Counted from the stretch's first letter, positions 16,609 through 58,635 are shown. The stretch is DNA of 64,000 bases from a virus (IMGVR_UViG_3300013121_000005:192001-256000), one strand, 5' to 3'. The notes: generated by a model from the sequence alone, not told the origin. Program-made: numbers and translations.

Positions 16609-16845
16609 ATGTTCTACTCGTTTGTGGTTCAATGTAAGGAAGAAATCGTAATCCCAGAGTACCTAGTCACTCTGGATCAAGGTGTAAACGTATTCAATGT
16701 AGTCGTGAAGGATCTTGATGGCTTTCTACGACAGCTTCAAGAGGCTGGGGTGATGGTCCAACAAGTCCACCGGCTTGAAGAGGAAGCGTTTCACCGGCTT
16801 GAAGAGGAAACGCCTGAATATAGGTTGCCCGATGGGACTTCGTAA
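16609..16845 (+). CDS. Hypothetical small protein
   Basis: GAGG RBS; 24-bp duplication (HRLEEE x2). Confidence 0.55.
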   Translation: MFYSFVVQCKEEIVIPEYLVTLDQGVNVFNVVVKDLDGFLRQLQEAGVMVQQVHRLEEEAFHRLEEETPEYRLPDGTS

Positions 16846-17095
16846 GCGTAAGAATGACTTGATCATGGTGCTTCGGGCACATGAAGTTGCAAAAGTACTT
16901 ACCCCTGCCCAAGTAGCTACCTTTAGGGATATGTACTCTCGTGCTCGTACCGAATCAGAGCAAGATGAAGTACGTAAGGTAGTACAGAATTTTGTGGATG
17001 ATACAGGGGCTGATCGCTTTTCTAGGCTTCTCCGAAAGTCACGCCAAGATGAAGATGACGATGAGATTGTGATTCCGCCTCATGCCCGCCCCTAA
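16832..17095 (+). CDS. Hypothetical protein with DRFSRLL-acidic tag
   Basis: ATG 16832 overlaps the upstream ORF. Confidence 0.55.
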   Translation: MGLRKRKNDLIMVLRAHEVAKVLTPAQVATFRDMYSRARTESEQDEVRKVVQNFVDDTGADRFSRLLRKSRQDEDDDEIVIPPHARP

Positions 17096-17110
17096 GAAAG
17101 AAGAGCCTCG

Positions 17111-17680
17111 ATGCCATCTAGAAAACGACTACTCCTCGATGTAGATGAGGTCCTTGCTGAGTTCCAAGTCTCAACTTTTCAAGTCGTCTATAGGCTATTC
17201 GGGAGAAAGCTGACTCCCCATGACTATGACACTTGGGACATTTTCTCCGCCTTCACGGCGGAAGAGAAGAGGGTCCTTTTCGAGGAGTTGGAGAAACCCG
17301 GCTTCTGTCAAAGTATTTCGCCTACCCCAGGGTCCCATGAGGCTGTCCGTGAGCTTCGGAAAATCGTAGATGTGTATCCCGTAACTTTCCCCTTCCATAG
17401 CCCGACTTGGGTCTATGAGCGTAACGTTTGGCTACAGGATCACTACGGATTTACGAAACAGGAGATCGTCTATACGGGGTCGAAGTTCCTAGTCACTGGG
17501 GACGCCCTCCTAGACGACAACCCAAGCCATGTGACTGCGTGGATGGGAGAGCATCCCCACGGGGTAGGGATGCTTTGGCATATCCCCAACACGCGAAATA
17601 TGGGGTACGGAGACCTTCGGGTCCATACGTGGGAAGAGGTCCTTCGCAGGGTTGAGGCTTTGGTTTCGCGGGCGGTGTAG
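17111..17680 (+). CDS. HAD-family 5'(3')-deoxyribonucleotidase (NT5C-like)
   Basis: LLDVDEVL motif I, K...GDALLDDNP motifs III/IV. Confidence 0.85.
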   Translation: MPSRKRLLLDVDEVLAEFQVSTFQVVYRLFGRKLTPHDYDTWDIFSAFTAEEKRVLFEELEKPGFCQSISPTPGSHEAVRELRKIVDVYPVTFPFHSPTWVYERNVWLQDHYGFTKQEIVYTGSKFLVTGDALLDDNPSHVTAWMGEHPHGVGMLWHIPNTRNMGYGDLRVHTWEEVLRRVEALVSRAV

Positions 17681-17710
17681 TCTGTCTCTCTAGTACCCCT
17701 GGAGTAACTC

Positions 17711-18361
17711 ATGTTCAAAACTGGCAGCCCTAACCTCAACAAGCTTCTTCCGAACGGTGGGTTTCCTACGGGTGGGTTGTCTCTTATCACTTCAGACGAG
17801 CTTAAAGACGAAGACAATGATGTAAACCTATCCCTCTTGTTGTTGTCCGTCGCCAAATGTGCGGGTAGGAAACAAGTACACGTTCACTACCTTGATTGCT
17901 TGCGCCTATACGAAAAGAGTAGGGCAACCAAGGGTATCCCTAACCTCCAAATGTATTGGCCTGAGTCCCTTGATGATTGCTTGGACTTAGCACTTGCCGC
18001 TGTAGAAACTGTAGGAAATAGCGTAAACCTTGTGGTTCTTGATTCCCCTAATGCTCTACCCGCTAAGCGAGGTCGAATCGTTTCCCTCGTGGGGAAGGCT
18101 ACTAACTGGTTAGCAAAGACCAAATCCTTGCTCAGTAGGTACCCTAAAACTGGGGTTGTCATTGGGCTGGGCCCCATTGGGGACTACAATCACCTCATTG
18201 AGAATGAGGCGATTGTAGCACTTTCGTTGAGTGCGGGGGGCCACATTAGAGTGCATAAGCCCAAACAAGGGGTGTGTCGTATCCTGGCAACAGAACGTGG
18301 TCTCAAGGACCTTTTGATTGAGCCAACTCCCATTGCCCGAAGTCGGTATGACCTGATTTAG
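17711..18361 (+). CDS. Degenerate RecA-like protein lacking Walker A; ends SRYDLI
   Basis: FKTGSPNLNKLLPNGGFPTG resembles the RecA STGS..LD..LG.GG.P.G motif; YLD and LVVLDS (Walker B) retained; GKT absent. Confidence 0.55.
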   Translation: MFKTGSPNLNKLLPNGGFPTGGLSLITSDELKDEDNDVNLSLLLLSVAKCAGRKQVHVHYLDCLRLYEKSRATKGIPNLQMYWPESLDDCLDLALAAVETVGNSVNLVVLDSPNALPAKRGRIVSLVGKATNWLAKTKSLLSRYPKTGVVIGLGPIGDYNHLIENEAIVALSLSAGGHIRVHKPKQGVCRILATERGLKDLLIEPTPIARSRYDLI

Positions 18362-18367
18362 GTCCTA

Positions 18368-18823
18368 ATGACTGTCCTAATGACTGCCCTACCCTTCAGT
18401 ATGACTTGGGGTCCGGTCCTGCTTACGACCGTCATGTTGGAAAAGGCAACTAAGGATGCTTTAAGTCTAGAAGGGTGTGTCATTGTTATTGGCTGTACTA
18501 GAGCCCACTCTAACGAGTTAGGTCACCAACTTACAGCTAAGTTACTTGAGGTTCCTGGTACTCAAATACTCAGTCGAGGGTGCAGTGGGGGAGATATTCT
18601 TTTTAACTCAGCCAGTAAGAAGGAAGGAGAGATTTGGGTTGTCACTGACTACTCCACCTTCTTTGGGAAAGAAGAGACTTGGGTTACCTCTGAGTACCTT
18701 CAGAAAAAAGTCCGAGGGCGAAAGCTAGCCTCGCTATTCCTTCTTAGCGGTTCGTCTGGGTGGAGGAGAGGGTGTCCTCAACCCCCTCCCAAAACACGGT
18801 ATGAGCTTCTCTTAGGCACCTAG
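18368..18823 (+). CDS. Hypothetical protein ending TRYELLLGT
   Basis: ORF in operon context; 12-bp duplication at its start. Confidence 0.5.
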   Translation: MTVLMTALPFSMTWGPVLLTTVMLEKATKDALSLEGCVIVIGCTRAHSNELGHQLTAKLLEVPGTQILSRGCSGGDILFNSASKKEGEIWVVTDYSTFFGKEETWVTSEYLQKKVRGRKLASLFLLSGSSGWRRGCPQPPPKTRYELLLGT

Positions 18824-18840
18824 ACGGAGGGGTCGGAAAG

Positions 18841-19344: not shown

Positions 19345-19709
19345 TTCGCTTTGCTATCCAAGCTTGTGACGAGGAAGTTGAGTTTCATCTTGCTGATGTG
19401 GTCCTTCAAGCTTCTTCGCAACTTAAGCTGAAGTTCAAGCACCTAGGGGTGGTGGACTGGATCACCATAGGGACCTCTAAATTTCTAGTGTTTCAGTCTG
19501 ATATGACCCAGGCTGATCAGCTCTTGGACCTCATCTTTCAAAACGGCCGAGCTGTTGTAAGAAGGACCTTAACGGGGTTTCAAGTTCGGATGCTGAATAA
19601 CCGAACAGGCTCTGTACCGACGTATGTGATGCAAAACACACGTAAAACAGGGCAGTTCTTTCGAGGCACCTTAGACCCCCATTGGGAGCGTCAGTTCAAG
19701 AGGAACTGA
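19341..19709 (+). CDS. Hypothetical protein
   Basis: ATGA-coupled to folA. Confidence 0.55.
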   Translation: MIRFAIQACDEEVEFHLADVVLQASSQLKLKFKHLGVVDWITIGTSKFLVFQSDMTQADQLLDLIFQNGRAVVRRTLTGFQVRMLNNRTGSVPTYVMQNTRKTGQFFRGTLDPHWERQFKRN

Positions 19710-19755
19710 GAAGGTTCCTATACGTCTACCTTGGGTAGACGAGGGACCTCTTCTC

Positions 19756-22732: not shown

Positions 22733-23725
22733 ATGGTGCCGCTCAAGGACCTAACGTTAGCGAAACGGGTAGCCTTCTTCTATCAAGATCGAATGGCTCG
22801 TCGGATCGCGGCTAGATTCTTGTTCTCAGCAAGTTTGTTGGACGGTCTGGTTCACCGGATGGATTCCTTGTTTGCGAACTATACGAACAAGGGAGCGGCT
22901 GAAGCAGCTAAGTGGTTCGAGGCGAATTTCCGTTTTGACATGTCCAAAACACCGCAAGGGCAGAAGGACCTCAAAAACAAGGCAGCCAAGTTCCATTGGT
23001 TTTTGCGGTCAGCGGCAGGTCTTGAGGCGTATGGTAAGGATGACCCAAACAATGAAGAGGGTTGGTCCCGAGCAGGCAAGGAAGCAGCTCGTATTTGGGA
23101 GCACGAGATCAAACCCTTGGTTGGGGATCTCGTAAGATACTTTACCGACGAAGGGGGTAAAATCGTCCCCAAGGAAGTGAAGGTTGGGGGAAACACCTAC
23201 CTCAACCTCGTCGGGTTCGACCAGAAGAAGCTGGGGCACTACGTTACGACGCTGGAGAGCCTCTGGGACGACCTGAAGGGTTGGCGCCGGAAAGCCCTTT
23301 CGGGGGGCCTCAAGGTCGTCTTGGCGAGCCCCAAGGAGTTTCATGGTACCGTGGGGGGCAAGTACAAGTCGTCGGAAGACCTCCTTCTCGTTCGTGCAAC
23401 CCCCCATGTTCTTAAACGAACGCAAGGTACCTACGGCGCCCTTGATTACATCCTCATCCATGAGCTAGGGCATCGCTACGAACGAAAGCAGAATCTTCCC
23501 GAGGACTTCGACAAATCCTACTGGTGGACCAGTACGTACAGCCGTAAAGAAGGGGAGAGCTTTGCAGAGCTGTTCGCTCTCGGGCACTTCAAGATCAAGG
23601 GGCAAGGCGCTGAAGCGACACAGGACCGTTTCGAGAAGCTCATGGCTGGACACGACAACATACCTCGGCCCGAATTGCCGGAGCATCTGCAAAAAGTCGT
23701 CCAATCAAAAGCTGGGGTGGTGTAG
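22733..23725 (+). CDS. Zincin-like metallopeptidase, tagged class
   Basis: IHELGHRY...STYS....ESFAELF; leader RRIAARF. Confidence 0.75.
   Translation: MVPLKDLTLAKRVAFFYQDRMARRIAARFLFSASLLDGLVHRMDSLFANYTNKGAAEAAKWFEANFRFDMSKTPQGQKDLKNKAAKFHWFLRSAAGLEAYGKDDPNNEEGWSRAGKEAARIWEHEIKPLVGDLVRYFTDEGGKIVPKEVKVGGNTYLNLVGFDQKKLGHYVTTLESLWDDLKGWRRKALSGGLKVVLASPKEFHGTVGGKYKSSEDLLLVRATPHVLKRTQGTYGALDYILIHELGHRYERKQNLPEDFDKSYWWTSTYSRKEGESFAELFALGHFKIKGQGAEATQDRFEKLMAGHDNIPRPELPEHLQKVVQSKAGVV
23719..23724 (+). promoter_or_regulatory. GGTGTA motif upstream of clpX
   Basis: 10 nt before ATG 23735; no SD in between. Confidence 0.65.
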
Positions 23726-26077: not shown

Positions 26078-26104
26078 TGATCTGTTGATGATGAAGGTCC
26101 TGTG

Positions 26105-27316
26105 ATGGACCTTCATCTTATCCGGAATATCATTGCTAGGTTTAGGATCTCCAAGTCTATGGGAGATCCTAAGGAATTGGTACACGAGTATGAGCAAATG
26201 CTCAACAAGTTTACCCTTCCGGAAGACCAGGTAGCTTCGGCCAAAGCTGTGATGCAAAGGCTGATTTCCAATGGGCTGGGACAAGCGCAAGGTATCACCG
26301 ACCCAGGGTTTGATGCTGCTCACACTACATCCCTGCTAGCTAGTGTGAAGATTGAGCGAGGTTGGCCCTACGTTTACGACCCTGGCAGCAAGCTGTTTCT
26401 GGCTCTACTACAGTCCTATACGTTACCTGCGCCGCTTCGGAAAAAGATTGAGATTGCGTCTCGGCTATACCTAAAGGGTATGCGCCCAAGGTACAAAGCA
26501 AAAAGGCCCGGCCCAGAAAGGGACCTGGAATACCTCCTCTCCTATGAGAAAGTCATGGGGGTATGGCGAGAGCACCTTGCTTACGCTAAAGAGGCCATTG
26601 CTAAGGGCAAAGAGCACGCAACGGAAGGCGAAGGGGCCACAAAGCTCAATGTAGGGCCGTTTACCGTTGTCAACACGGGAGGTTTCTCTGAAGAGCAGAT
26701 GGGCTCGGTTGTTGAGGTTGTCAGGAAGGCTCATAGCCTTTTGCAAAGCTCAGGCTTCAATGAAGTGTGTTACGGTGAAATTCAAGTCACCAACACAATT
26801 CACAAGGGGTCAGTCTGGGCTTTCTACATGGTCACTAAGGACGAGTTGTTTGTTCGAGCCAACCTCAAACCCACCGTCGACATAGTTCACAACGTCCTGC
26901 ATGAATTAGGGCATCGCTACGAGCACAAGTTCCTCAAGGGGGGTGAAGCCCCCCTTTGGAGGCTCTACCATACGATGGAGTCTCAAGAGAGAACAAGTCT
27001 TAAGGATGCCAAATTTCCTGACCCTGGTACAACCTTGGTAAACAAGGGTCGTACCTTCATTGTCACCCATACTACTGCGGACTTCCGTAATGGATACGTA
27101 GTCCACCTCAAGATGGAAGGTGGGACTGCGAAGGTACCCCTAAGCTCGTTTTGGGCTCTCAAAGGTGAGAATCTCAAGGACCCAAGTCTTGGGTTTGTTA
27201 CCCCTTACGCGAAAAAGAGCCCTAACGAGAACTTTGCGGAGATGTTTGCCTTCTATTGTATGGGCAAACTGTCAGGGTCGCAGAAGGAAGCCTTTGAGCA
27301 AGCTATTGCGAAGTAG
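26105..27316 (+). CDS. Zincin-like metallopeptidase, tagged class
   Basis: LHELGHRY...TPYA....ENFAEMF; leader RNIIARF. Confidence 0.75.
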   Translation: MDLHLIRNIIARFRISKSMGDPKELVHEYEQMLNKFTLPEDQVASAKAVMQRLISNGLGQAQGITDPGFDAAHTTSLLASVKIERGWPYVYDPGSKLFLALLQSYTLPAPLRKKIEIASRLYLKGMRPRYKAKRPGPERDLEYLLSYEKVMGVWREHLAYAKEAIAKGKEHATEGEGATKLNVGPFTVVNTGGFSEEQMGSVVEVVRKAHSLLQSSGFNEVCYGEIQVTNTIHKGSVWAFYMVTKDELFVRANLKPTVDIVHNVLHELGHRYEHKFLKGGEAPLWRLYHTMESQERTSLKDAKFPDPGTTLVNKGRTFIVTHTTADFRNGYVVHLKMEGGTAKVPLSSFWALKGENLKDPSLGFVTPYAKKSPNENFAEMFAFYCMGKLSGSQKEAFEQAIAK

Positions 27317-27352: not shown

Positions 27353-28678
27353 ATGCTGACTCCCAACCCCCCTCAAGTTGGTTCCAATCGAGAAACCTTT
27401 AAAGAGCGTTATGCTCGGTTGCTTCTCTCAATGTCTCTTCAGGAGGCCAAAGATATCCTAGGGTTCCCCCCTGGATACTCTCCGAGCCCTGACGAGATTG
27501 CCAAGGCTTATCGACGCAAGGCTTTGGAGAACCATCCGGATCGTGGGGGCAGTCACGAAAAGATGGTGGAGGTCAATGTCGCCAAGGACCTTCTGGAGGG
27601 TAAGGGGCGTGCAACTTGGACCCCTGAGCCTGCACCTCGTCGAGAGCGACCAAAGCCAACTCCAGTTGAATACGACGCAACCCTAAAAGGGGCCTCGTTT
27701 GAGGCCGCATGGGGTTCCGCAGGTGTCCCAGCCTCGGTAGAGTGGAAGTTTGTGAGCATCCCTGAGTGGTATTGGCCTAGCTCGAATCACCCAGGTCATC
27801 GAGTCTGGTGCCTCTATGGCCAGAACGAGCAGAAGCACGTCTTCCTTGCCTTCAAGGAGCGCGGAGAGAGTGCCGGGGGCGTCTGGCTGGATGACCAGGG
27901 GAAGCAGGCACCCCCTGGGACCGGCAAGTTCACGAAGATCGAGCAGGACTGGCAGTCGAGCCTCATCGAGATCCCGATCGCTCAGAACGTCGCCAAGATC
28001 GCGCCCAAGTACCTGAAAGAGGTTGGGACGGCGTGGGCGGATGGGGCCAAGCCGAAGCCCCCAAGGAAGTTTGTTGCGTGGCCCGGTGGTAAGCCAACAG
28101 AACAGATTATCAGCAAGATTCCCCGTTCAGGTGGAGCCGCTCTAAAGGACATCCTCGTGGGCACTGGCCTTCTGACGGACGAGGACCCCGCAGTGGCAGG
28201 CCGCAAGAGCGTGGTGGAAATCTTCACGAAGTACAGCAAAGAACGCTTCGAGCGGGCGAAGAAGTTGAAGGCCGAGGGTAAGCTCAAGGGGCTCAACAAT
28301 GCCCACCAGTACGACTTCTTCGTCCGGGTCAATGGGAAGACCGAGAAGCTCGAAGACGACACTATTTCCAAGATGGAGCGGTCCTTCATCCCATGGGTTC
28401 TAAGCTGGGAGATCAGCGAAGGGGCCCCGAAAAATCTCACCCGGATGCGAGGAGGTCGGCTCAAGTACGGCCCAGCAGACGCTATTCGGGAACTAGCTAA
28501 TTGCCTTACGACAGAACCCTCTTGGCTTCATATCGCTCTAGAGAAAGCTATCGAGGAGTATGAGGTCCCAGCTAAGGTGGCATACAGGGAACCTCTTCGA
28601 GCCTTTCATGACGCTCTGATCACCCGCAACGTGGTTGCGCGAGTTCTCTCGACCCGCAAGAGCAAGGTGAAGGTATAG
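27353..28678 (+). CDS. J-domain (DnaJ-like) protein, tagged class
   Basis: ILG...EIAKAYRRKALENHPDRGG; C-terminal RNVVARV. Confidence 0.8.
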   Translation: MLTPNPPQVGSNRETFKERYARLLLSMSLQEAKDILGFPPGYSPSPDEIAKAYRRKALENHPDRGGSHEKMVEVNVAKDLLEGKGRATWTPEPAPRRERPKPTPVEYDATLKGASFEAAWGSAGVPASVEWKFVSIPEWYWPSSNHPGHRVWCLYGQNEQKHVFLAFKERGESAGGVWLDDQGKQAPPGTGKFTKIEQDWQSSLIEIPIAQNVAKIAPKYLKEVGTAWADGAKPKPPRKFVAWPGGKPTEQIISKIPRSGGAALKDILVGTGLLTDEDPAVAGRKSVVEIFTKYSKERFERAKKLKAEGKLKGLNNAHQYDFFVRVNGKTEKLEDDTISKMERSFIPWVLSWEISEGAPKNLTRMRGGRLKYGPADAIRELANCLTTEPSWLHIALEKAIEEYEVPAKVAYREPLRAFHDALITRNVVARVLSTRKSKVKV

Positions 28679-33700: not shown

Positions 33701-33711
33701 AGGTAACCTTG

Positions 33712-33739
33712 TACACCGCCCCTTTAGGTTTCTTCTTAT
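33712..33739. promoter_or_regulatory. Divergent promoter region: GGTGTA (minus strand) and CTTAT (plus strand)
   Basis: TACACC 33712-33717 lies 11 nt from ATG 33700; CTTAT 33735-33739 lies 14 nt from ATG 33754. Confidence 0.6.
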
Positions 33740-33753
33740 CTATCTTAGCGGGT

Positions 33754-34911
33754 ATGAGGTATAGAGTAGCTCGGCTTATCCGGAAAGTTGTGACTAGGTA
33801 CGTAGTTGCTAAGATGTCCATTCCGGAAGCAGAGAAGATTCTTGGGGTTCGACCTGGAGCGTCGGCTGAAGAGATCAAGGCTGCGCACAGAAAAAAGGTC
33901 CTAGAGCTGCATCCGGACTTGAATCGGGACCGTGATACCACGTCTGAAATGGCTCTAGCCAACGCAGCAAAGGACGTTCTGGAAGGACGCTCAGCCCCTT
34001 CGTATAGGGATGATGGGGGTGACGAAGAGTACTCTCCTCCCCGCACTCGTTACGAGCCACCAGAACCAAAGGTTGTTACGTTTGAGGAGGCTTACTCAAC
34101 AGCAGGTGTCCCTTCTGGAGTTGAGTGGCTGTTTGTCACGGATATGCAACGAGGTACCGGGTACTCCTCGGATGAATTCACTCGGTCTACCAATGGTCGT
34201 GTTGCTTACGGCCGCACAGGCACAAAGCATGTGTTCGTAGGTATGTGCCGTAAAGTGTACAAAGAACACTACATTGGAGGGCGTAAAGACGACGACCTGT
34301 GGTCCGTGGTCTCGTTTGAGTACCCGATCTCTGGGGATGAGGGGAAGACTCCTGCTTGGCTCTACGGTAACGTGGTGAAAACCCTTAAGGCTTCTGGGTG
34401 CGACGCCAAATTCAACTCCAAGGTCCATGACCTCAAGGGGAAGGGTTGGCATCCCAAGGACAAGGGGATGGGCTCGCTTGGGTCCACGATGTCGATCAAG
34501 CATTGGCTCGTCAACGCCGAGGAAGTAGCTGCTGACGATGAAGCGGTCGCGACCCGGAAGCAGGTCGTCGAGCTGAAAACAACTGAAGACCGTCTCTATG
34601 GGGACGAGAAACCAAAGCCAGGGTTCTTTAGAAACCCTGGCTCCGAGTGGGACACTACCTACTACAAGCTCACGCTCATCATCAACGCCAAGGAATTCGA
34701 CTTGTCGAAAGACGACTTCGCCTCTTTCATGAAGATTCGTGGGTTGTACGCTAGAGTCTTCGGGGACTACATCTATGGCTCTAAGTCCAAGATGCTCACG
34801 AGGCTAAGGGACGGTAAGAAAATCCTGGCATGGATGGCAGCGAAGTTTACCGATCTACCGCAGCAAGCCCGAGATGCGTTACTCGCTGCTTCTGCTCAGA
34901 TGAAAGGTTGA
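33754..34911 (+). CDS. J-domain protein, paralog of 27353, tagged class
   Basis: RKVVTRY leader; LHPD; shared blocks AGVP..VEW.FV, KHVF, RK.VVE, K.LTR.R.G. Confidence 0.8.
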   Translation: MRYRVARLIRKVVTRYVVAKMSIPEAEKILGVRPGASAEEIKAAHRKKVLELHPDLNRDRDTTSEMALANAAKDVLEGRSAPSYRDDGGDEEYSPPRTRYEPPEPKVVTFEEAYSTAGVPSGVEWLFVTDMQRGTGYSSDEFTRSTNGRVAYGRTGTKHVFVGMCRKVYKEHYIGGRKDDDLWSVVSFEYPISGDEGKTPAWLYGNVVKTLKASGCDAKFNSKVHDLKGKGWHPKDKGMGSLGSTMSIKHWLVNAEEVAADDEAVATRKQVVELKTTEDRLYGDEKPKPGFFRNPGSEWDTTYYKLTLIINAKEFDLSKDDFASFMKIRGLYARVFGDYIYGSKSKMLTRLRDGKKILAWMAAKFTDLPQQARDALLAASAQMKG

Positions 34912-35931: not shown

Positions 35932-36564
35932 TCAGCCCCTCTCGATGTACTCGTGGTACAGAGTCTCATTGATAGCATCGATAGCGATCTCCCCTTCGCA
36001 GAGTTTCGCACCTAGGAGTACAGCAGTCCCAATAGGCATAGTGAGGAATTGGAGTTTGTGGCGCCGAAGGAGCTTTTCTTGCTCCTGATGATACCTGTCA
36101 ACCACTGCCTCTCGTTGTACAATTTCTGTCTCGGTTCCAAGTCGATGAGGGTGACAGTTGAAGGGATCCCCCACTGAGTAGTAGGTCCGACAGATAAGGG
36201 GTCGTGCTTTGTAAGCACTACAGCGCTTGTTCTCGTCCAAAAGTGGACAGGGGATCAAAGCGAGTAGCCACACCTCAAATGAAACCCCGTATTGGCGGTC
36301 GGAAACTTCTTTGAGCTTTTCTCGGAGTTTTAGAGTCCATTGGTTTTGGCTGACTAGCCAACGGTAGATGAGAACCCCCTCGAAAACCGAAATGTGGATG
36401 GGGTGGTAGCAACACCAAGAGCAACCTACTGTACAGGTAACTCTCTTCTCGCCACTCTGGCGAACAGCCATGTCGAACTTTGAGGCGAGATCCGTGCGGA
36501 GAACTTGGGTCTGTCCGATGGACCCTTCAACGAGGATTGGCAATTTTCGCTTCTTAGTTGCCAT
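35932..36564 (-). CDS. YkgJ-family (CxxCxxCC) cysteine-cluster protein
   Basis: CTVGCSWCC...CPLL...CSAY.ARPLICR. Confidence 0.8.
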   Translation of the reverse strand: MATKKRKLPILVEGSIGQTQVLRTDLASKFDMAVRQSGEKRVTCTVGCSWCCYHPIHISVFEGVLIYRWLVSQNQWTLKLREKLKEVSDRQYGVSFEVWLLALIPCPLLDENKRCSAYKARPLICRTYYSVGDPFNCHPHRLGTETEIVQREAVVDRYHQEQEKLLRRHKLQFLTMPIGTAVLLGAKLCEGEIAIDAINETLYHEYIERG

Positions 36565-37064
36565 CAGTCTTCGTCTTTGAGTCTGCTGAATCTGGTAGCG
36601 GGTTCAGCAGGCTTTAGGTCCTTTTGAGGTAGCCTATTCCTACGTTGCGTAATTGTGCCAAATGCAGGGGGGACGGTAATCCGTACTCGGTGGGAAGACC
36701 TGTGTTGGGCTAACAGTACAGTTCCTGGCCGAAGGTTTAAAGAGGGGTTCAGGAAAATACTACCCCCATGTCGAGTCGGGTCACTTTGCATCCAAAATTC
36801 AAACGGTTCCAGTACACGGTCTCCCCCCTGTCCAGGTAGGGCAGGAATGGACAGGAGCAGGAACGGCCCTGCTCCTGTCTTTATTGGGGCCATGATTACA
36901 GGCCAATCCGTAGCAGGGTGCGCAATATGCACTAGATCCTTCGCGTCATTGAAAATCTCGCACTCCCCAGTAGTATTGACCGCATGTCCTACCTGCATGC
37001 GAAGGTCATAACTGCGGATATACCAGATAGCCCCATTGTAGCTTACGAGGTCTCCTGCTTGCAT
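36564..37064 (-). CDS. Hypothetical protein ending TRFSRLKDED
   Basis: ORF coupled to the downstream gene. Confidence 0.6.
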   Translation of the reverse strand: MQAGDLVSYNGAIWYIRSYDLRMQVGHAVNTTGECEIFNDAKDLVHIAHPATDWPVIMAPIKTGAGPFLLLSIPALPGQGGDRVLEPFEFWMQSDPTRHGGSIFLNPSLNLRPGTVLLAQHRSSHRVRITVPPAFGTITQRRNRLPQKDLKPAEPATRFSRLKDED

Positions 37065-44182: not shown

Positions 44183-44887
44183 ATGGCTTTTCTTGTAGCT
44201 GTTTCAGCCCTCGTTGGGTTTATCTGGTTTGTCTTTGGCCTTCTTGTAATGAGAGGGGCTCTTAGGTTGGAACAGAAAGCCCACTCAGTGAGTAAGCTCC
44301 AGATTACGCATCTGACGCAGCAGGTGGAGCAACTAACGACCGAGCTAGAGAGGAGAACCAACAACTCTCCTCTGTCAGCGGAACACAGAGACACCCTCAA
44401 TTCTTTCCTAGCTGACAGTACGCTGAGGTGGAACACTTACAAAAATCAGGTCAATGCAACTTTCCTTCGTCAGCTAGACCTTCTGTCTGCTGGCCATGGC
44501 ATAAAGTATGCTTTGGTGTGCAACCAGTTCGAGAGCGATCTTAACTTGAACACTGGTCAGTTGCGTCGTTACCTAGAATGGCGTTTTCGAGGGCTACTGC
44601 AACAACGGGCTGAGTCTCCTTACCGTAGTATGTCGTCTCGACGTAGTATGTCGTCTCGAAGCGAGACGGAAACCGGGGAAACCGAGGAAACCAGGACAGA
44701 CCTACATAGGGCAACAGAAGACCTACATAGAACTATAATGGAAATGACTAAGGACCTCGACGTCAAGATTGCCCGAGAGGATCTGACCAAAGTGGCGGAA
44801 GAGGTTCTGAAGAGCTTCCTAGCTCAACCAACCCCCCCACGTCCCCCGCCTGCAACTAGGTACGACCACATCTCAAAGGAAGAATGA
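44183..44887 (+). CDS. Membrane-anchored coiled-coil protein ending TRYDHISKEE
   Basis: N-terminal TM; 18-bp and 21-bp duplications. Confidence 0.6.
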   Translation: MAFLVAVSALVGFIWFVFGLLVMRGALRLEQKAHSVSKLQITHLTQQVEQLTTELERRTNNSPLSAEHRDTLNSFLADSTLRWNTYKNQVNATFLRQLDLLSAGHGIKYALVCNQFESDLNLNTGQLRRYLEWRFRGLLQQRAESPYRSMSSRRSMSSRSETETGETEETRTDLHRATEDLHRTIMEMTKDLDVKIAREDLTKVAEEVLKSFLAQPTPPRPPPATRYDHISKEE

Positions 44888-47357: not shown

Positions 47358-47543
47358 ATGGCAACCAGCAGCAAATTTAGGGGACCCGCCAAGCGGGGCG
47401 GAATGTCCGGAGGCAGCTTGGCTTGCCACAACACTTGTAGCTGCCACCCTCAGCAGTGGGGGGCCAAAAAGGGGGCTCGAAGGTTGCGTAGGCGAATCTC
47501 CAAGCAGATCATTCGAGAGGAGCTGGGAGGTAAGGTGAAATGA
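47358..47543 (+). CDS. Small basic protein
   Basis: GAGG RBS; CxxxCxC then an Arg-rich helix. Confidence 0.55.
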   Translation: MATSSKFRGPAKRGGMSGGSLACHNTCSCHPQQWGAKKGARRLRRRISKQIIREELGGKVK

Positions 47544-47698
47544 AGACTATCTACTCACGGCTTGCAGAACCTTCTAAGGAAGAGGCAGCCCAGGAGGACT
47601 TGACAGAGCTGACCAAAGCTCTAGCTAAGGGGGATCTTCTTTCTAGGCTTTTGGAGCATGAGTTGCGTCGAAACCTCCGAGCAGCAAAGAAGAAGTAA
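47540..47698 (+). CDS. Small protein (52 aa, not in the ORF track)
   Basis: ATGA-coupled, MKTIYSRLAEP...; AAGGTGA RBS. Confidence 0.5.
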   Translation: MKTIYSRLAEPSKEEAAQEDLTELTKALAKGDLLSRLLEHELRRNLRAAKKK

Positions 47699-50107: not shown

Positions 50108-50145
50108 TAGAGCTGGCTCCGAAAGGTCTTTCGGTGCCAGCTCTA
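50108..50145. terminator. Hairpin between convergent genes
   Basis: tagagctggc-t-ccgaaag / ctttcgg-t-gccagctcta. Confidence 0.7.
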
Positions 50146-51879
50146 CTGTTGTTGATACCGTCGAGCGACCTGCTCTTCGAGCATCGCGGTCTTCAGGACA
50201 GACCGGAAGCTCTCTACTTGGTCTCGGCTGATGTTGTATTCCAGGATGTAATGGGCGAAGACTTCGGCGAACGCCTCGTCCACGTTGCTCGCCCCATACG
50301 TTGAGACGGGGGCGACGGGGGCCGGGTTCTTCTCGTAGCTCTCCATCCATTCGAGCGTGGCCGGATCGTTCTTGAGCTTCTCCTTGGCTCGCTCGTTGTG
50401 CTTTTGGACGGCGAAGTCTATGAAGATGAGGGCCTCGCTCACAATCTGAGAGATAAGCTGACGAGCCTCAGTGAGCCAGGTGTCTTTCCCTTCGGGCCTG
50501 AGGAGGGTGAAGTCCTCGAAGTGCTCGGTGAGCTTGGCCTTGGTCTTGTACACGTCGTCCTTGAGGCGATCGACTTCGGACCCGAGGTCCTTGTCCACGT
50601 CGAGGGACGTGACGGCATCGATGATGTCGTTTCCAAAGACCCAGCCGTCCTTCCCCACGCCATCCCGGGCGAGGGGGGTCAAGTTGGCGAGGTTGTAGTT
50701 GACGACTCGGGTGAGCCGCTGCTCAGCACGGTCCTGGGCTCGGAGCACTTTCCGCTTTGAGTCGTCGATGTCCGCGTCCTTGAACATTCGGACATCGACG
50801 GTTGGCTTCGAGGGACGAGGCTTTGTGTGCGTCTTGACCAGGGCCTCGAACTTCGCACGTTGGGACGACCCCATCTGCTTGAACCAGTAGCGATGCCCAA
50901 GCTCGTGGACCATCAGCTCCACGATGAACACTCCGGGACGGTTGAAGATCGTCACCGTGTCTCGGCCGATCTCGTACCAACCTCCAACACCCCCACCTGT
51001 ATTCTGGTTTACCCCTCCACACTCAGTGCATTGGATGAAGACATTTCCGTACCAAGCCTTCTCGAACCCCTTGCTTTTCAGCTTGGAGTAGGCTTCAGAT
51101 AGGTACCGCACGTACTTCTTGATGAGATCCGTGTCAACGGTCCGGTCATCCACAATGACCTTCATCCCGTGAAGGTCAAACTCCCGGAACCCCCCAGCCT
51201 CTTGAATCGTCTGCTCTGAGTAGTTCGCCGCGAGCATCTCGTAGATGCGGTCGACCCACTTGTTGGGGTCCCAGTCAAGTTTGCTTCGCTTGGCCAAGCG
51301 GGCAGCAGCTTTACTGAAGCCTACTCGATGCAGAAAGTCATACTTGACCTGGTAGACATCATCATCTACCAGGGCTTTCAACTCCTCTGGCTTTGCAGCT
51401 CTAAGTGTTTTCTCGACAAGACGTTCAATTCCTGCCTTGTCGACAGTCCATTCCGACTTGAAGAGGTCCCCCACAGTTGAGGTAACTTCCTTCATCTTAT
51501 CGAAGACGTCTTGGTAAGCTCTCCATGTAAGGTACCCTTTTGGGTCCTTGAAGTTGGTATACCCAAGGTCTAAGCCATCGTACTTATTTGCAATGGCCTC
51601 TACATACCCCCTGGCCATTTCAACCCTATTCTTGATGGAATCTAGAGCCGTGTCGAGCGTTACCAGATTCGCGAACTCTTTCCAGAAACGATCAAAGAAG
51701 GGGAGTACCTTGTCGTGGAGAATCCACTTCCAGTAGGGCGGGTTGTCACTACTCCTGAGGGGTTCTTTGAGGATAGCCTTAAGTGTATCTTTCTGGGCTT
51801 TGAACCACTTCGCAGAAAGATAAGCTGCGACAACCTGCCTTCGGTAACGGGTTGCGACTCTTAGGGTAAGAGATTCCAC
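50143..51879 (-). CDS. Zincin-like metallopeptidase, tagged at both ends
   Basis: VHELGHRY...STYG....EAFAEVF; LRVATRY at the N-terminus, KTA...QVARRY at the C-terminus. Confidence 0.75.
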   Translation of the reverse strand: MESLTLRVATRYRRQVVAAYLSAKWFKAQKDTLKAILKEPLRSSDNPPYWKWILHDKVLPFFDRFWKEFANLVTLDTALDSIKNRVEMARGYVEAIANKYDGLDLGYTNFKDPKGYLTWRAYQDVFDKMKEVTSTVGDLFKSEWTVDKAGIERLVEKTLRAAKPEELKALVDDDVYQVKYDFLHRVGFSKAAARLAKRSKLDWDPNKWVDRIYEMLAANYSEQTIQEAGGFREFDLHGMKVIVDDRTVDTDLIKKYVRYLSEAYSKLKSKGFEKAWYGNVFIQCTECGGVNQNTGGGVGGWYEIGRDTVTIFNRPGVFIVELMVHELGHRYWFKQMGSSQRAKFEALVKTHTKPRPSKPTVDVRMFKDADIDDSKRKVLRAQDRAEQRLTRVVNYNLANLTPLARDGVGKDGWVFGNDIIDAVTSLDVDKDLGSEVDRLKDDVYKTKAKLTEHFEDFTLLRPEGKDTWLTEARQLISQIVSEALIFIDFAVQKHNERAKEKLKNDPATLEWMESYEKNPAPVAPVSTYGASNVDEAFAEVFAHYILEYNISRDQVESFRSVLKTAMLEEQVARRYQQQ

Positions 51880-54220: not shown

Positions 54221-56056
54221 TTAGTCGTCTAGATTGAGTTGGCATGCTGCATGTTCAGCCAACTCAATTTCCTGGCTTAGTTTGGCTGAGGCATTCTTAG
54301 GTGCATCTTCTGGGCTAAGAGGTTGGCCTGGGTTATCCGGGATAGGACACCTCCCTTCCGCACCAGAGGGAATTCCTTTGGGGTTTCCAACGAGTTTCTT
54401 AACCACGAGACCGATCCCTTCTAGCTTCCGAGCATAGTGAACCCCATCCTCTTGCGGAAGGATGGCCTTGCCCAGTACATTGGGCACATGTACGGCACAA
54501 ACGACAGGAGCACCTTCACTCAGTTTCTCCACTGAGTGGCTCACTTCACCATAGACACCGGGGCGTTTGTAGCGAGACCTGATATGCTCTTTGATAGCAG
54601 ACTTTCCGGCTGTTGAACCGTCAGAGCCAAGAAGCCCCGTTTTCAGTCCAAGGGGGGTAGTTTTGTAAAGATTGAAAGCAATGGGCCCTTCCTCATTGAA
54701 GATCACCTCCCATTTGTCGTACTCAAGTAGCCCCATTGGACTTGTCACATGCATCCCGATCTTTTGGTAGGATGCTCGGTACATCTCCCAGATGGCTTCC
54801 ATCAAGTCCTTGCGATCGTTTCCTGTAACCCACTTTGTGTCAACACTGGCTTTCTTCGACTCTTGGGCCCCTCCCTTTCCAGAACGGTACAAGGAGCGTA
54901 CTTTTACACCAAGGCTTTCCCCAAGCTCGACCAACCAATTTTCGAGTTTGACTCCTTGGTAGCCGAGGTCCCAAGCATACATCTCGACGGCACCCTTGAG
55001 ACTTGTAGCTTCTAGCCCCTCACTCTTCCAAATTTGCCTCATGTACTCTTCTTGAGACTCTCTCCCTGGTTTTGGGCCCTTACGAGCGGCGGCTGTCTTA
55101 GAGGTACGCTGTACAACCCCCTTGGCCCAGTCAAAGTCCTCTGGGTACCGCCAACGCTCCATACTGGGAGCGTTACGCCACTCTTCAGGGGCGATATCGA
55201 GGATGGCTTTCCCGATATCTGCGACAGCTTTCGTCATAACTTTTTCGTAAGTTTGGAGAGACCGGTTACTGAAGCCTGCCCAATCCCCAGCGAACGCATC
55301 TAAGATGTTATGGGGTCGATGATAGAGGTCATCCCAAGCAAGAGGGACATCCTCACTCGTCCGAATAAGCCCAATCAGCTTACGAGACTCTTGCCACATT
55401 TCGTGGAATGCAAGGAGGTACTTCCTGGTCTCTGCAAATAGGTTAGTCAGGGCCTCATAGTTCAAAGGCTTGCCGCCCATACCAAGAAGGCTGGCAGTCA
55501 TTTCCCCTTGAAGTTTCAATAGGTTAAGGTACTTCTTGCCAAGCCGTACAGACTTGTTGACTAAACTCTGACAAAGAGCCTCAGCCTTGCGCATGTCTGG
55601 GTGGTCCTTGTGAGGGGCCTCCTCGATCATGTCCTGCATCTTGTCCAAGGCATCAGAATACTCCTCCAGGAAAAAGTCACGGAGGTGAATCTTCCCTCGC
55701 CCTAGGTCTGTCGCAAGCATGCATGCATCTACGGCTTGGGCCACTTCTTTGCTTGCAATGTCAACAACAGTTAGTGCTACGTTCCGCTTTCGAGCCTGCT
55801 CTTCCTGTGGACTCTTAGAAGGTTGGAAACGGTCGTGCCGTCTACCTTCTAGAACCTCCTTGGCGACATTGATCTCCACCATCTTCTCGTGACTGCCCCC
55901 ACGATCTGGATGGTTTTGGATGGCCATTCGACGGTAGGCTTTGGCGATCTCCTCAGAGTTCGGAACGTACCCTGGGGGAAACCCTAGGGTAACTTTAGCC
56001 TCTTCCAGGGACATAGACAGGAGAAGTCGAATAGCCAAACGATCAAATCCACTCAT
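54221..56056 (-). CDS. Multi-module J-domain protein, tagged class
   Basis: J-domain nearly identical to that of 27353 (NHPDRGGSHEKMVE); KTA, KKA and KNA junctions. Confidence 0.8.
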   Translation of the reverse strand: MSGFDRLAIRLLLSMSLEEAKVTLGFPPGYVPNSEEIAKAYRRMAIQNHPDRGGSHEKMVEINVAKEVLEGRRHDRFQPSKSPQEEQARKRNVALTVVDIASKEVAQAVDACMLATDLGRGKIHLRDFFLEEYSDALDKMQDMIEEAPHKDHPDMRKAEALCQSLVNKSVRLGKKYLNLLKLQGEMTASLLGMGGKPLNYEALTNLFAETRKYLLAFHEMWQESRKLIGLIRTSEDVPLAWDDLYHRPHNILDAFAGDWAGFSNRSLQTYEKVMTKAVADIGKAILDIAPEEWRNAPSMERWRYPEDFDWAKGVVQRTSKTAAARKGPKPGRESQEEYMRQIWKSEGLEATSLKGAVEMYAWDLGYQGVKLENWLVELGESLGVKVRSLYRSGKGGAQESKKASVDTKWVTGNDRKDLMEAIWEMYRASYQKIGMHVTSPMGLLEYDKWEVIFNEEGPIAFNLYKTTPLGLKTGLLGSDGSTAGKSAIKEHIRSRYKRPGVYGEVSHSVEKLSEGAPVVCAVHVPNVLGKAILPQEDGVHYARKLEGIGLVVKKLVGNPKGIPSGAEGRCPIPDNPGQPLSPEDAPKNASAKLSQEIELAEHAACQLNLDD

Positions 56057-56087
56057 ACCCTGAAGGGTGCAATAAGAGGAATTTCAC

Positions 56088-57053
56088 CTAAGCCATGGTT
56101 AACGAAAGGAGGGCCATCCGTACATAGAGACCAGCTTTCACCTGGCGGAAGTAAGCAGCCCGAGGGTCGGTGTCGATCTCATTCGGAATCTCGTTGACTC
56201 TCGGGAGTGGATGGAGGATCCGAGCCTCCATCTTCATGTCCGCAACCAGCTCAGGGGTGAGGAGGCAGGAGTCCTTCACCTCATGGTATTCAGAATCGTG
56301 GGTGAACCGCTCTTTCTGGACGCGGGTCATGTAGACCACATCAGCCTGTTCAATGGCTCGGGCCGCTTCATGGAGCCCTGTTCGGACATGGTAGGTCTGG
56401 GCAACCTTGCTTTGAACTTCCTCGTAGAGGGGATTGTCTTCTCTATCAAGGCGAAGGAGCCAGGGGCTCACCAAGTAGAACTCGTTGCCTGAGAACCGGT
56501 TCAGAAGCCGAATCAGGCTATGAACCGTGCGGCTATGGGCGAGGTCCCCCACGAAGGCGACCTTCAAGTTGTCGGTCCGGTTCATCTCCAATTGGATCGT
56601 GAAGAGGTCCAGCAGGGCTTGGGTTGGGTGCTCGCCGATGCCATCCCCGGCGTTGATGAGGGGGACAGGGCTCACCTTGGCAGCCCGAGAGGCTGCCCCC
56701 ATCTCAGGATGGCGGAGGACGATTGCATCGGCATATTGGCCGAGGGTTACGATCGTGTCTTCCAACGACTCCCCCTTCGAGACGCTGGAGAACTGGACCC
56801 CTTGAGTGATAGGGATGACGTTGCCGCCCAGCTTTCCCATTGCAGCGATGAAGCTGGAAGAGGTCCTAGTCGATGGCTCGTAGAAGACACACGCGAGCGT
56901 CTTGCCCGCGAGGACCTGGAGAAGCTCCGTGGGTTTGGTCATCGCCATGGCTGTTGCGTGATGGAAAATGGTCTGAATCTTTTCCTTAGTGAACTGCCCG
57001 GCAGAAAGGATGTGTTGGTCTTCGAGGGGTCTCATTTGAGAGGGATACCCCAT
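56088..57053 (-). CDS. pyrB: Aspartate carbamoyltransferase catalytic subunit
   Basis: FYEPSTRT, KGESLEDT, NAGDG..EHPTQ, GDL..SRT, TRVQKER, HPLPR. Confidence 0.96.
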   Translation of the reverse strand: MGYPSQMRPLEDQHILSAGQFTKEKIQTIFHHATAMAMTKPTELLQVLAGKTLACVFYEPSTRTSSSFIAAMGKLGGNVIPITQGVQFSSVSKGESLEDTIVTLGQYADAIVLRHPEMGAASRAAKVSPVPLINAGDGIGEHPTQALLDLFTIQLEMNRTDNLKVAFVGDLAHSRTVHSLIRLLNRFSGNEFYLVSPWLLRLDREDNPLYEEVQSKVAQTYHVRTGLHEAARAIEQADVVYMTRVQKERFTHDSEYHEVKDSCLLTPELVADMKMEARILHPLPRVNEIPNEIDTDPRAAYFRQVKAGLYVRMALLSLTMA

Positions 57054-57072
57054 CAAAACTTCCACCGAATAG

Positions 57073-57200
57073 TAGAAGGCCCCTGAGATAAAACCCAGGG
57101 GCCTTCTAGCCGTTTCTTGGTTCGCGCTCCGGTCACTCGCGATATATGCCGGAGTCGACTCGGGCCTTACGGTTAGCCCGAAAGCTTGTTCACTTCACCT
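57073..57200 (-). promoter_or_regulatory. Structured leader or sRNA ending in a terminator-like hairpin upstream of pyrB
   Basis: 13-bp perfect stem 57073-57108; further stems cgggc/gcccg and ctccgg/ccggag. Confidence 0.5.
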
Positions 57201-57222
57201 AAACGAAGAGGTCCTCAGGCTC

Positions 57223-57450
57223 TCAACGAGATTTCTTCCTCTTGTGCATCGCCTTACACTTGGCACACTTTTTGTAACCTGGGCCCCAGGTACCACACCA
57301 TGTAAGTACCGAATCTGTGTCCTGTGCCTCTCCGCAAAGCGACGTTTCCGGCTTAGACTTGACAGTAGCAAACAAATGAAGCGTTAGCCTATCTCTTGTA
57401 GGCATTGCATCAATGCGACCAAGAGGGTAGGATTCGGTCCGCCACCGCAT
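57223..57450 (-). CDS. Small Zn-finger protein
   Basis: H...SLCG...CAKC. Confidence 0.5.
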   Translation of the reverse strand: MRWRTESYPLGRIDAMPTRDRLTLHLFATVKSKPETSLCGEAQDTDSVLTWCGTWGPGYKKCAKCKAMHKRKKSR

Positions 57451-57463
57451 GGGGTAACCCCTT

Positions 57464-57694
57464 TTAGTTCGGACCTGGTTGCGAGTCCTGGTTCTCTACT
57501 TGGTCAAGAGCTTTCTCTAGCTGATTCGCAAATTCAGGACGAGAACTAAGTTCCTGCTGAATAAGTGCCTCTAGCATGTGAGCCATAGGCCCACATGTAC
57601 TACACCAGTGGAGGTAGGTGTCAGGTTCGACGTCGGTGTAATCCATCCGAAACTTTGGGTCTGCTTCCTGGTTACAGTCGTTACACTTTGGCAT
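57464..57694 (-). CDS. Small Zn-finger protein
   Basis: CNDC...CSTC; GGTGTA 9 nt upstream. Confidence 0.55.
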   Translation of the reverse strand: MPKCNDCNQEADPKFRMDYTDVEPDTYLHWCSTCGPMAHMLEALIQQELSSRPEFANQLEKALDQVENQDSQPGPN

Positions 57695-57697
57695 GCT

Positions 57698-58051
57698 TTA
57701 CTCTACACCATCGGAGTCGGAGTCTTTTAGGAGCCGCTCAAACCGAGTGAGCGGGATAATAAGCAGATGGGCCGTTTTGGCGCTGGGGGGCTTCCGAAGG
57801 GGTCGCGGTGCCCTGAGCTTCGGAGGGTGAAGGCGCTCCTCCGCTGGGAGGATGTTGTCGAGGATCTCAAATATACGCCTGTCTTCCTCCGCCTGAATCT
57901 GAGCGACCTGATCTAAGGTCCGACCGGCCGGAACGGCCACTGCATCTAAGGCATGCCTCACGTTCGGATCTTCACGAATAGCAGTGAGCAAGGCTTGGGC
58001 CTGGGCCCCTACCCTTACGTCTGCTCGTATCTGGAAGGTCAATGTGGGCAT
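57698..58051 (-). CDS. Hypothetical protein with TRFERLLKDSD tag
   Basis: GGTGTA 11 nt upstream. Confidence 0.55.
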   Translation of the reverse strand: MPTLTFQIRADVRVGAQAQALLTAIREDPNVRHALDAVAVPAGRTLDQVAQIQAEEDRRIFEILDNILPAEERLHPPKLRAPRPLRKPPSAKTAHLLIIPLTRFERLLKDSDSDGVE

Positions 58052-58062
58052 GCCCCAGAGTT

Positions 58063-58080
58063 TACACCACCAATGGTGTA
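58063..58080. promoter_or_regulatory. Back-to-back GGTGTA motifs (bidirectional promoter)
   Basis: TACACCA-ccaa-TGGTGTA between divergent starts 58051 and 58093. Confidence 0.7.
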
Positions 58081-58092
58081 TATCAAGAGGTA

Positions 58093-58635
58093 ATGCCTGA
58101 TGACCTCAACGATGACCTTATGGAAGAGATGCGTGCCGCCGCTGAGCTAGCTGGTCTAGAGGGTCGTGTACTTCGCACCTCAGATGAACTTGCACGCCAA
58201 TTCCCTAAGCAGGAAAGAGGGCTGATTTGCCATCTTTGTGGGGCAAATCTCATCCTCAAGGATGGTCGCTATGGTCTTTTCTATGGGTGCAAACAGTGGG
58301 CAGAGACTCGTTGCAAAGGGTCTCAAAACTGCAACAGGGTAACGGCAGAAATCTATGAGCTTACCCAAGTACAACAAGTCTGCCAACTTATCCGTGCCAT
58401 CAAAGAAAAGGCACTTAGCACCGGGGAAACGATAACTCGAAAGTGGCTTAGGCAAACCCTAAACTTGAGGGAGGATGACCCTTGCCACTCTGAGTTGTAT
58501 GATAGCCTAAAGTACCCTCAGGTTAAGCGACTCTCTGAGACAAAGGACTACACTAAGTTCATCCGGGATGCCCAGGCATACCTCAGAAAGCGTGGGCCAT
58601 GGTCTCGGTATGATTTACTGGATAGGGAAGAGTAG
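58093..58635 (+). CDS. Topoisomerase-type C4 Zn-ribbon protein ending SRYDLLDREE
   Basis: CHLCGANLILKDGRYGLFYGC...C. Confidence 0.65.
   Translation: MPDDLNDDLMEEMRAAAELAGLEGRVLRTSDELARQFPKQERGLICHLCGANLILKDGRYGLFYGCKQWAETRCKGSQNCNRVTAEIYELTQVQQVCQLIRAIKEKALSTGETITRKWLRQTLNLREDDPCHSELYDSLKYPQVKRLSETKDYTKFIRDAQAYLRKRGPWSRYDLLDREE

Follow-up and report, generated by a model that had tools for sequence, protein, structure and literature searches.

The window analysed here is a stretch of 64,000 nucleotides (IMGVR_UViG_3300013121_000005:192001-256000), which corresponds to bases 192,001-256,000 of a 363,484 bp contig with 53% GC (G000 in what follows). G000 is a huge uncultured phage. A short peptide, here called the tag, recurs close to the ends of small proteins encoded in the window and elsewhere in the genome, and its interpretation as a portable short linear docking motif is well supported by comparison of the predicted proteins. 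As far as can be read from these sequences, its consensus in this clade is [ST]-R-[YF]-[DES]-x-[LI], and that of the wider family is [RPK]-[TSN]-x-[YF(W)]-[D/s/t/e]-[R/h]-[LI]-[LM], followed by Asp or Glu. The tag is best read as lying in an exposed tail rich in Pro and Lys, usually C-terminal and occasionally N-terminal, and the carriers, of which there are around 20 per genome, as mostly fast-evolving small proteins, cytoplasmic or membrane-anchored and otherwise unrelated. It is likely that all tags are read by one common partner. Taken as a whole, a docking motif with a common partner, for which a Ycf46-like AAA ATPase is the leading though tentative candidate, appears to be the best explanation, and we hold it with modest confidence.

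Terminal enrichment of the tag

Open reading frames (ORFs) were assigned by a greedy longest-ORF rule, giving for G000 465 ORFs in the tag statistics and 496 in the tblastn comparison. The pattern [ST]R[YF]..[LIVM] has 30 matches in the 465 ORFs, and 13 of these sit 10 residues or fewer from the C-terminus, compared with 0.70 +/- 0.78 terminal matches (maximum 4) in 500 per-protein shuffles. Looser scans and the inclusion of small ORFs bring the number of carriers in G000 to approximately 20-25, all between 208 and 340 kb. The main form of the tag lies 0-21 residues from the C-terminus, with Asp or Glu as the usual last residues. Across 27 tags, Pro (2.3x) and Lys (2.2x) are over-represented in the 15 residues upstream, and Asp (4.1x) and Glu (2.8x) in the residues downstream. 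This is the context, a Pro-rich spacer before the motif and acidic residues after it, that had been described in an earlier reading of the window made from its sequence alone (the sequence-only reading).

The codons of the tag vary between copies: Thr is encoded by ACA, ACC, ACT or ACG, Arg by CGG, AGA or AGG, Tyr by TAT or TAC, Phe by TTC or TTT, and Leu by six codons. Because synonymous codons differ in this way, selection must act on the peptide and not on the DNA, and a nucleotide-level element is excluded. Given so short and degenerate a motif, and the false positives that loose patterns yield, it could be argued that the tag has no function, and is a chance or compositional recurrence or a nucleotide element read in frame. 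We give this next to no credence, in view of the synonymous variation, the 13 terminal matches where 0.7 are expected, the replication of this enrichment in relatives, and conservation in 105 of 133 homologues (both described below).

Several matches were rejected as tags. DRFEKLM (window 22733-23725) and RERYRLI (genome 258271-258960) are false positives, since both are structured helices conserved in all relatives. A +1 alternative frame at window 8414-8503 (+), which overlaps the end of the DnaB-like gene (7006-8469), ends in PTRFDRLG (...SRYEHVPTRFDRLG), identical to the tail of another carrier; it is probably due to chance, because the frame is missing from the 3' ends of DnaB in relatives. 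In the head-region protein at genome 138547 there is an N-terminal match, but it lacks conservation. It is worth adding that a conserved protein of 397 residues (genome 116501-117694, +) ends in GRNNFYERIT, an ending kept in all relatives including the most distant (KFERIL); it fits the loose tag pattern and may be part of the fold.

Four relatives from IMG/VR were analysed whole: G001 (286 kb), G002 (87 kb), G005 (407 kb, complete and with terminal repeats) and G003 (529 kb). The last is the most distant of the four, with a DnaB that is 54% identical. No close relative of G000 was found among the GenBank phages searched, the nearest record being LR745208.1 (485 kb), whose DnaB has 42% identity across half its length. 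Strict C-terminal tags number 5 in G001, against 0.53 expected, and 7 in G005, against 0.73, with many more in the short ORFs of both, so that the comparison with shuffled controls suggested by the sequence-only reading gives enrichment in these two genomes as well as in G000. The tags include a sub-form with an acidic tail (e.g. SRFERILNED and TRFDRVLEDD) and a fixed nine-residue C-terminal sub-form, [ST]RF[DE]R[ED]xx[VLI] (e.g. TRFDREDPV), which occurs 9 times in G005, twice in G001 and once each in G002 and G000. In G003 the R[FY] form is not enriched (1 against 0.9 expected). An unbiased search of that genome for C-terminally enriched patterns returned W.RL, and at least six of its proteins have ends of the form L-W-[DET]-R-[LI]-[LG] with acidic residues. 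There is likewise no enrichment in LR745208.1, where the tag count is 21 against 15.1 +/- 3.7.

Carriers and their orthologues

The seven C-termini listed in the sequence-only reading were all found as quoted, and a further instance that it had missed was added. The first carrier (16775..17095, +; shorter if started from the ATG at 16832) has 106 residues, with DRFSRL (nt 17012-17029) 21 residues from the end and an acidic run after it (GADRFSRLLRKSRQDEDDDE). The second, of 216 residues (17711..18361, +), has SRYDLI (nt 18341-18358) at its very C-terminus, ending in ARSRYDLI. In a carrier of 151 residues without a recognised family (18368..18823, +), TRYELL (nt 18794-18811) comes after PQPPPK, and the protein ends in PPPKTRYELLLGT. 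The carrier at 36564..37064 (-), of 166 residues and with a predicted all-beta tandem SH3/Tudor-like fold, has TRFSRL (nt 36579-36596) followed by a final KDED (EPATRFSRLKDED). That at 44183..44887 (+) has 234 residues and carries TRYDHI (nt 44855-44872) after PPRPPPA, ending in PPPATRYDHISKEE. Further along are a carrier of 117 residues (57698..58051, -), in which TRFERL (nt 57731-57748) is followed by LKDSDSDGVE to give the end IPLTRFERLLKDSDSDGVE, and a Zn-ribbon protein (58042..58635, +; Zn_ribbon_Top1) of 197 residues, or 180 if counted from 58093, in which SRYDLL (nt 58603-58620) is followed by DREE to give the end PWSRYDLLDREE.

The added instance is a probable carrier of 198 residues (58642..59238, +), with GRYKLL (nt 59176-59193) 14 residues from the end and LSEKDE after it (SGRYKLLLSEKDE). 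It is less certain than the others, because Gly replaces Ser/Thr and no orthologue was found. A 52-residue ORF (47540..47698, +) opens with MKTIYSRLAE, which had been proposed as a possible variant; this N-terminal copy (nt 47546-47563) fits the family-wide form T-[VAI]-Y-[DS]-R-L, and is a single instance.

No Pfam or PHROG family common to the carriers was found, and PHROGs gave no match for any of them; a homologue search with two carriers returned only themselves. The few that can be annotated are the Zn-ribbon protein at 58042-58635 and its G005 orthologue, an RlaP-type nucleotidyltransferase (G005) and a glucosaminidase (G005). The carriers are otherwise unrelated, as the sequence-only reading had maintained, and the other tag of G000, RxVVARF, is visible by eye on none of them, again as it had claimed. 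Its descriptions of individual carriers fared unevenly: the Zn ribbon was identified by Pfam, but the P-loop/RecA-like assignment of 17711-18361 was not confirmed there and is made by eye only.

Two carriers have a single N-terminal hydrophobic segment with basic residues after it, which by the positive-inside rule would place the tag in the cytoplasm. In the carrier at 44183-44887, residues 1-19 are hydrophobic and are followed by basic residues and a coiled-coil-like body, and by the same rule its topology would be N-out/C-in.

No conserved tag was found in the structural region (approximately 76-192 kb), and no candidate late-promoter word was found upstream of the carriers. A search of five genomes found no PDZ domain. 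The tag-free structural region and the missing promoter word bear on the suggestion that the tag is a virion cargo signal, loading proteins into the capsid or the ejection apparatus in the manner of the T4 capsid-targeting sequence or encapsulin cargo peptides. Encapsulin cargo-loading peptides do sit at the ends of unrelated cargo proteins after a flexible linker, and the glucosaminidase carrier of G005 has no signal peptide and an activity that is typically virion-associated. However, the structural genes do not carry the tag, the carriers lie on both strands of the accessory regions, and acidic tails and N-terminal membrane anchors are a poor fit to a cargo signal, all of which makes this role improbable.

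Orthologues keep the tag while its flanks diverge. Those of 17711-18361 in G001, G005 and G002 end in PTRF[DN]RE[DG]P[VL], and the last 60 or so residues otherwise cannot be aligned. Between the Zn-ribbon carrier and its G005 orthologue (which ends in NTRFDRVLEDD) the tag is the only part of the C-terminus in common, and the 106-residue carrier and its G001 orthologue (TDRFSRVL) have in common TG[AT]DRFSR[LV]L and an acidic run. There is also an N-terminal copy in genome 271328-271846, whose G005 orthologue has two N-terminal copies. A tblastn comparison with the four relatives gave a match for only 6 of 20 carriers, compared with 278 of the 496 ORFs overall (56%). The tag is thus found mainly on fast-turnover accessory genes, with each phage tagging its own set.

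A larger comparison is provided by the 166-residue carrier (36564-37064). A profile search of 1.84 billion cluster representatives gave 178 members of its family, and among the 150 members listed, 133 are full length, of which 105 have a recognisable tag within the last 30 residues. The family logo is [RPK]-[T63 S20 N15]-[V/A/R/I]-[Y66 F36 W3]-[D66 S T E]-[R62 H22]-[L73 I18]-[L56 M17], then Asp or Glu, and the general form is T-x-Y-D-R-L-L-acidic, often with a second Phe 4-6 residues beyond the tag. Because the logo has V/A/R/I before the aromatic residue, the Arg at this position is clade-specific. Syntenic Logan contigs with family members have tags on other ORFs too (e.g. TIFDRLCGVEDIV, PTRFDRIRVGDW and DVYDQLLSYEPERS, all at the C-terminus). 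No homologues of the family were found among the GenBank phages searched. The AlphaFold2 (AF2) model of the carrier, with a predicted local distance difference test (pLDDT) score of 94, has the all-beta tandem SH3/Tudor-like body followed by a helix and a coil tail that holds the tag. Foldseek found no significant match to this model in the PDB.

The stop codon of the 166-residue carrier (-) shares base 36564 with the start of a CxxCxxCC protein (35932-36564). The continued adjacency of the two genes in distant relatives (L084, L086) points to a two-protein unit.

Candidate readers of the tag

The enrichment, the selection on the peptide, the accessory nature of the carriers, the predicted cytoplasmic tails of two of them, and a structural region without conserved tags all fit a docking motif for one cytoplasmic partner. 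This is the short linear docking motif on unrelated carriers that the sequence-only reading had put forward, and it is supported by the linker and acidic context, by retention in orthologues and by the family of the 166-residue carrier. We propose that the aromatic residue and the Leu or Ile three residues further on would fit a hydrophobic groove of the partner, that the acidic tail would contact a basic rim, and that the partner would handle the carriers together as one set of clients.

The leading candidate is a Ycf46-like AAA ATPase of 519 residues (13787..15346, +), an assignment that is possible but tentative. In this clade, AAA ATPases typically recognise their clients by short terminal motifs that bind to the N-domain, as in Vps4 with its MIT-interacting motifs (MIM) and p97 with its cofactors. 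The ATPase module belongs to the classic clade, like Cdc48, PAN, CdvC and FtsH, and the N-domain matches models of cyanobacterial Ycf46. The phage protein could thus be a Cdc48/PAN-type unfoldase whose non-ATPase N-domain binds the tag, after which it would remodel, unfold or release the tagged proteins, as Vps4 or p97 do with short terminal motifs.

It is ranked first because of its phyletic pattern and gene order. By tblastn, on whose thresholds all such calls of presence and absence depend, the ATPase is full length in the five close tag-bearing genomes (G000, G001, G002, G003 and G005) and absent from LR745208.1, the genome without tag enrichment. It is also present in G006, a 469-kb phage contig that has 57 proteins in common with G000, as two full-length copies of 34% and 30% identity. 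G006 was found with a loose N-terminal-tag pattern, the exact pattern MNRYDI.LGKKP having given no match. The pattern x-R-[YF]-[DE]-I-x-L (of the MNRYDIALGKKPPP type) is found at 8 of its N-termini, where 0.33 would be expected, and at none of its C-termini; tblastn found in G006 no ClpX, J-domain proteins, von Willebrand factor A (VWA) protein or detectable clamp homologue. This phyletic pattern, with matches in G005, G003 and G006 and none in LR745208.1, is seen for only six G000 proteins; besides the AAA ATPase these are HolB, LigA, a nucleoside hydrolase, an exoribonuclease-like protein and a protein of the head region. In G000, G001, G002, G005 and G006 alike, the genes are arranged in the order DnaB-PolA-AAA-tagged genes. 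Among the hubs named in the sequence-only reading, the ATPase is thus the best comparative fit, while ClpX suffers from its absence from G006 and the clamp from the lack of tags on replication enzymes.

Several points weigh against the ATPase and against a single reader. The proposal draws on comparative sequence data, and its phyletic part leans on one tag-free genome and on the tblastn thresholds, and assumes both a phage-encoded reader and a single system to which the N-terminal tag of G006 also belongs. The hydrophobic spacing in G006 is Y-D-I-x-L, compared with Y-D-R-L-L here. The linkage to the ATPase gene may reflect only a conserved gene order beside the accessory region. The N-domain is alpha/beta in a low-confidence AF2 model (mean pLDDT 60.6) and is not a known peptide-binding fold, and a literature search found nothing on Ycf46 clients. 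Finally, two sub-forms of the tag coexist in G005 and might have different readers.

In its broadest form, the proposal is that the tag and the Ycf46-like ATPase make up a phage-encoded client-selection system, in which a Cdc48-like unfoldase would recognise a lineage-tuned terminal peptide on about 5% of phage proteins across a large clade of huge phages, C-terminal here and N-terminal in another. This we regard as doubtful, though if true it would offer a first way into the function of Ycf46, an ATPase found in cyanobacteria and algal plastids that is so far uncharacterised. A second AAA ATPase (1099 residues) is encoded at L078:10238-13537 (-), equivalent to genome 286238-289537, and contains an intein of its own, which includes a homing endonuclease; Atlas matches based on structure suggest that the intein-bearing phage ATPases have a Ycf46-type N-domain in common.

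The phage ClpX (23735..26077, +), which has a zinc-binding N-domain and is interrupted by an intein, is a rival candidate. The tag would dock on its N-domain as the SspB tail does, either for timed degradation with host ClpP or because the carriers are adaptors. The zinc-binding domain (ZBD) of ClpX is a known docking site of adaptors and substrates (PMC7804408). The phage protein retains the C4 zinc finger, the GYVG pore loop and the LGF ClpP-docking loop, and no phage ClpP was found in G000, G001, G002 and G005, which were searched; with these loops intact and no phage ClpP in four of the five genomes, a proteolytic role with host ClpP is plausible. ClpX also occurs in each of the five close tag-bearing genomes and in the Logan relatives, is syntenic among relatives, and is missing from the tag-free LR745208.1. 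SspB itself has its short motif at the tip of a flexible linker, and the fixed sub-form ending in V/L/I could add a pore-engaged element. Nevertheless, the tag does not resemble the XB tail or the known classes of ClpX degron, its distance from the C-terminus varies from 0 to 21 residues, and its acidic ends are unlike ssrA-type degrons. In addition, G006 has a similar core motif, yet no ClpX was found there by tblastn, although homology of the G006 and G000 tags is unproven. A role of ClpX as reader is accordingly quite unlikely.

The ClpX intein (Hint and LAGLIDADG) lies just after Walker A and is also present in G005, but not in the G001, G002 and G003 copies. One of four zinc metallopeptidase-like paralogues with HE[LF]GH always adjoins ClpX, including in a Logan relative. 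These paralogues (window 26102-27316, +, and 50143-51879, -; genome 270138-271319 and 310297-311442) have in common a C-terminal E-x-F-A-x-x-F/A-x-Y helix, and each starts with a sequence like R-x-x-x-A-R-[FY], the other tag of G000.

The tag could also address a host protein that is conserved, such as DnaK brought in by phage J-domain proteins, or some other host machine. The window encodes two J-domain proteins (Pfam DnaJ) and a weaker paralogue, the R-L-L-L-like cores of several tags resemble DnaK model peptides, and tag variants differ between phages of differing GC content, as would be expected if their hosts differ. DnaK, however, disfavours Asp and Glu in and after the core, and many tags have no Leu-Leu pair, so that a host hub seems unlikely. 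The J-domain proteins are at 27353-28678 (+) and 54221-56056 (-), with the weaker paralogue at 33709-34911 (+). The first has an R-N-V-V-A-R-V tail in G000 and a helix-turn-helix-like end in relatives. Immediately ahead of the J-domain they have in common a sequence [R/G]-[YF]-[AD]-R-L...LLL that resembles the tag but looks structural.

A further possibility is a clamp-binding motif, which would bring accessory proteins to the divergent DnaN-like sliding clamp of the phage and hence to phage DNA. A phage protein of 441 residues matches beta clamps (E = 3e-4), and DnaX, HolA and HolB are also encoded. The arrangement polar-hydrophobic-[D/S/E]-x-hydrophobic parallels Q-L-[S/D]-L-F, clamp motifs too are found at disordered termini, and some carriers look DNA-related (the Zn_ribbon_Top1, P-loop/RecA-like and RlaP nucleotidyltransferase proteins). 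The replication enzymes themselves provide an objection. PolA is the only DNA polymerase found, a search for DnaE having found none, and PolA, DnaB, ligase, the 5'-3' exonuclease, DnaX and HolA are without the tag. PolA has another conserved C-terminal motif, F-x-x-x-[ML]-R. In the delta subunit, the segment expected at the clamp bears no likeness to the tag and has been lost by deletion in G003. Membrane-anchored proteins and a glucosaminidase would moreover be odd clients for a clamp. Complex prediction with the clamp and the tail of 36564-37064 gave a score of 0.00, which, being without controls, is no evidence either way. We consider it very unlikely that the clamp reads the tag. In PolA (window 9573-12377, +) the motif P-[ED]-x-F-x-x-x-[ML]-R lies approximately 7 residues from the C-terminus in all relatives, and is a candidate docking peptide of its own.

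Another C-terminal tail is common to two adjacent conserved proteins encoded between the gyrase/ligase genes and RecA (L075:18070-19050, +, and genome 59220-60086, +). It reads DFDFSDLLSNL in one and ...DFSTEDLTNLLGNV in the other, is kept in all relatives including G003, and has the look of the acidic tail found on single-strand-binding proteins of the T4 gp32 type. A protein with a penicillin-binding-protein-type peptidoglycan glycosyltransferase domain (PF00912, E = 6e-42) and a VWA-domain protein of 772 residues are encoded at L079:1181-2827 (-) and L079:4956-7274 (-), and both are kept in G005 and G003.

Comparison with known systems

The tag unites around 20 proteins of unassigned function per genome as one functional set, in huge phages that are uncultured and widespread. 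It provides a direct experimental handle on them: the peptide could be used to fish for the reader, and a reporter could tell whether carriers are degraded, remodelled, localised or packaged. Should the reader be the Ycf46-like ATPase, this would open up a conserved cyanobacterial and plastid protein, and a portable tag of this length that has a reader of its own may also be of use as a tool.

A literature search for the motif found no description of it. Among known systems, Vps4/CdvC with MIM motifs and p97/Cdc48 with cofactor motifs resemble it in having a short terminal motif after a Pro-rich linker on several different proteins. They also resemble the phage in combining a classic-clade AAA module with a separate N-domain; the phage module scores as Cdc48/PAN/CdvC-like and is found in the 6 tag-bearing genomes examined. 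The tag logo nevertheless differs from MIM1, (D/E)xxLxxRLxxL(K/R), and the phage N-domain is alpha/beta and Ycf46-like rather than an MIT bundle.

The XB tail of SspB and ssrA degrons are, like the tag, short C-terminal peptides on a flexible linker, and a ClpX with an intact ZBD is encoded nearby. The XB sequence is hydrophobic and basic (L-R-V-V-K-like) and at the extreme C-terminus, whereas the tag is aromatic-acidic-R-L with an acidic tail. The ssrA degron has a non-polar free C-terminus; the main form of the tag lies up to 21 residues from the end with Asp or Glu last, and only the nine-residue sub-form ends in V/L/I. The beta-clamp motif QL[SD]LF and the T4 gp45 tails, which recur on many clients of a single ring, also consist of 5-6 residues at disordered termini, with similar hydrophobic spacing and a small polar or acidic third position. 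The tag, however, has no Gln; R/V/A/I occupies its first position and the aromatic residue its second, and its carriers are mostly of unassigned function.

The T4 capsid-targeting sequence and encapsulin peptides likewise put one short terminal peptide on unrelated proteins by way of a flexible linker. In T4 the signal is at the N-terminus and is cleaved off; here no head gene carries the tag, and the carriers lie outside the structural module. The LC3-interacting region or Atg8-interacting motif (LIR/AIM), [W/F/Y]-x-x-[L/I/V], has the same core spacing as the tag, the same three aromatic residues as are seen across the lineages here, and an acidic flank. It is read by Atg8-family ubiquitin-like proteins, which are eukaryotic, and its acidic residues precede the core, whereas those of the tag follow it. 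Each of these families has a defining feature, of sequence or of distribution, that the tag lacks. A shared terminal docking or sorting peptide is of a known kind, and what is new here is the sequence of the tag and its distribution.

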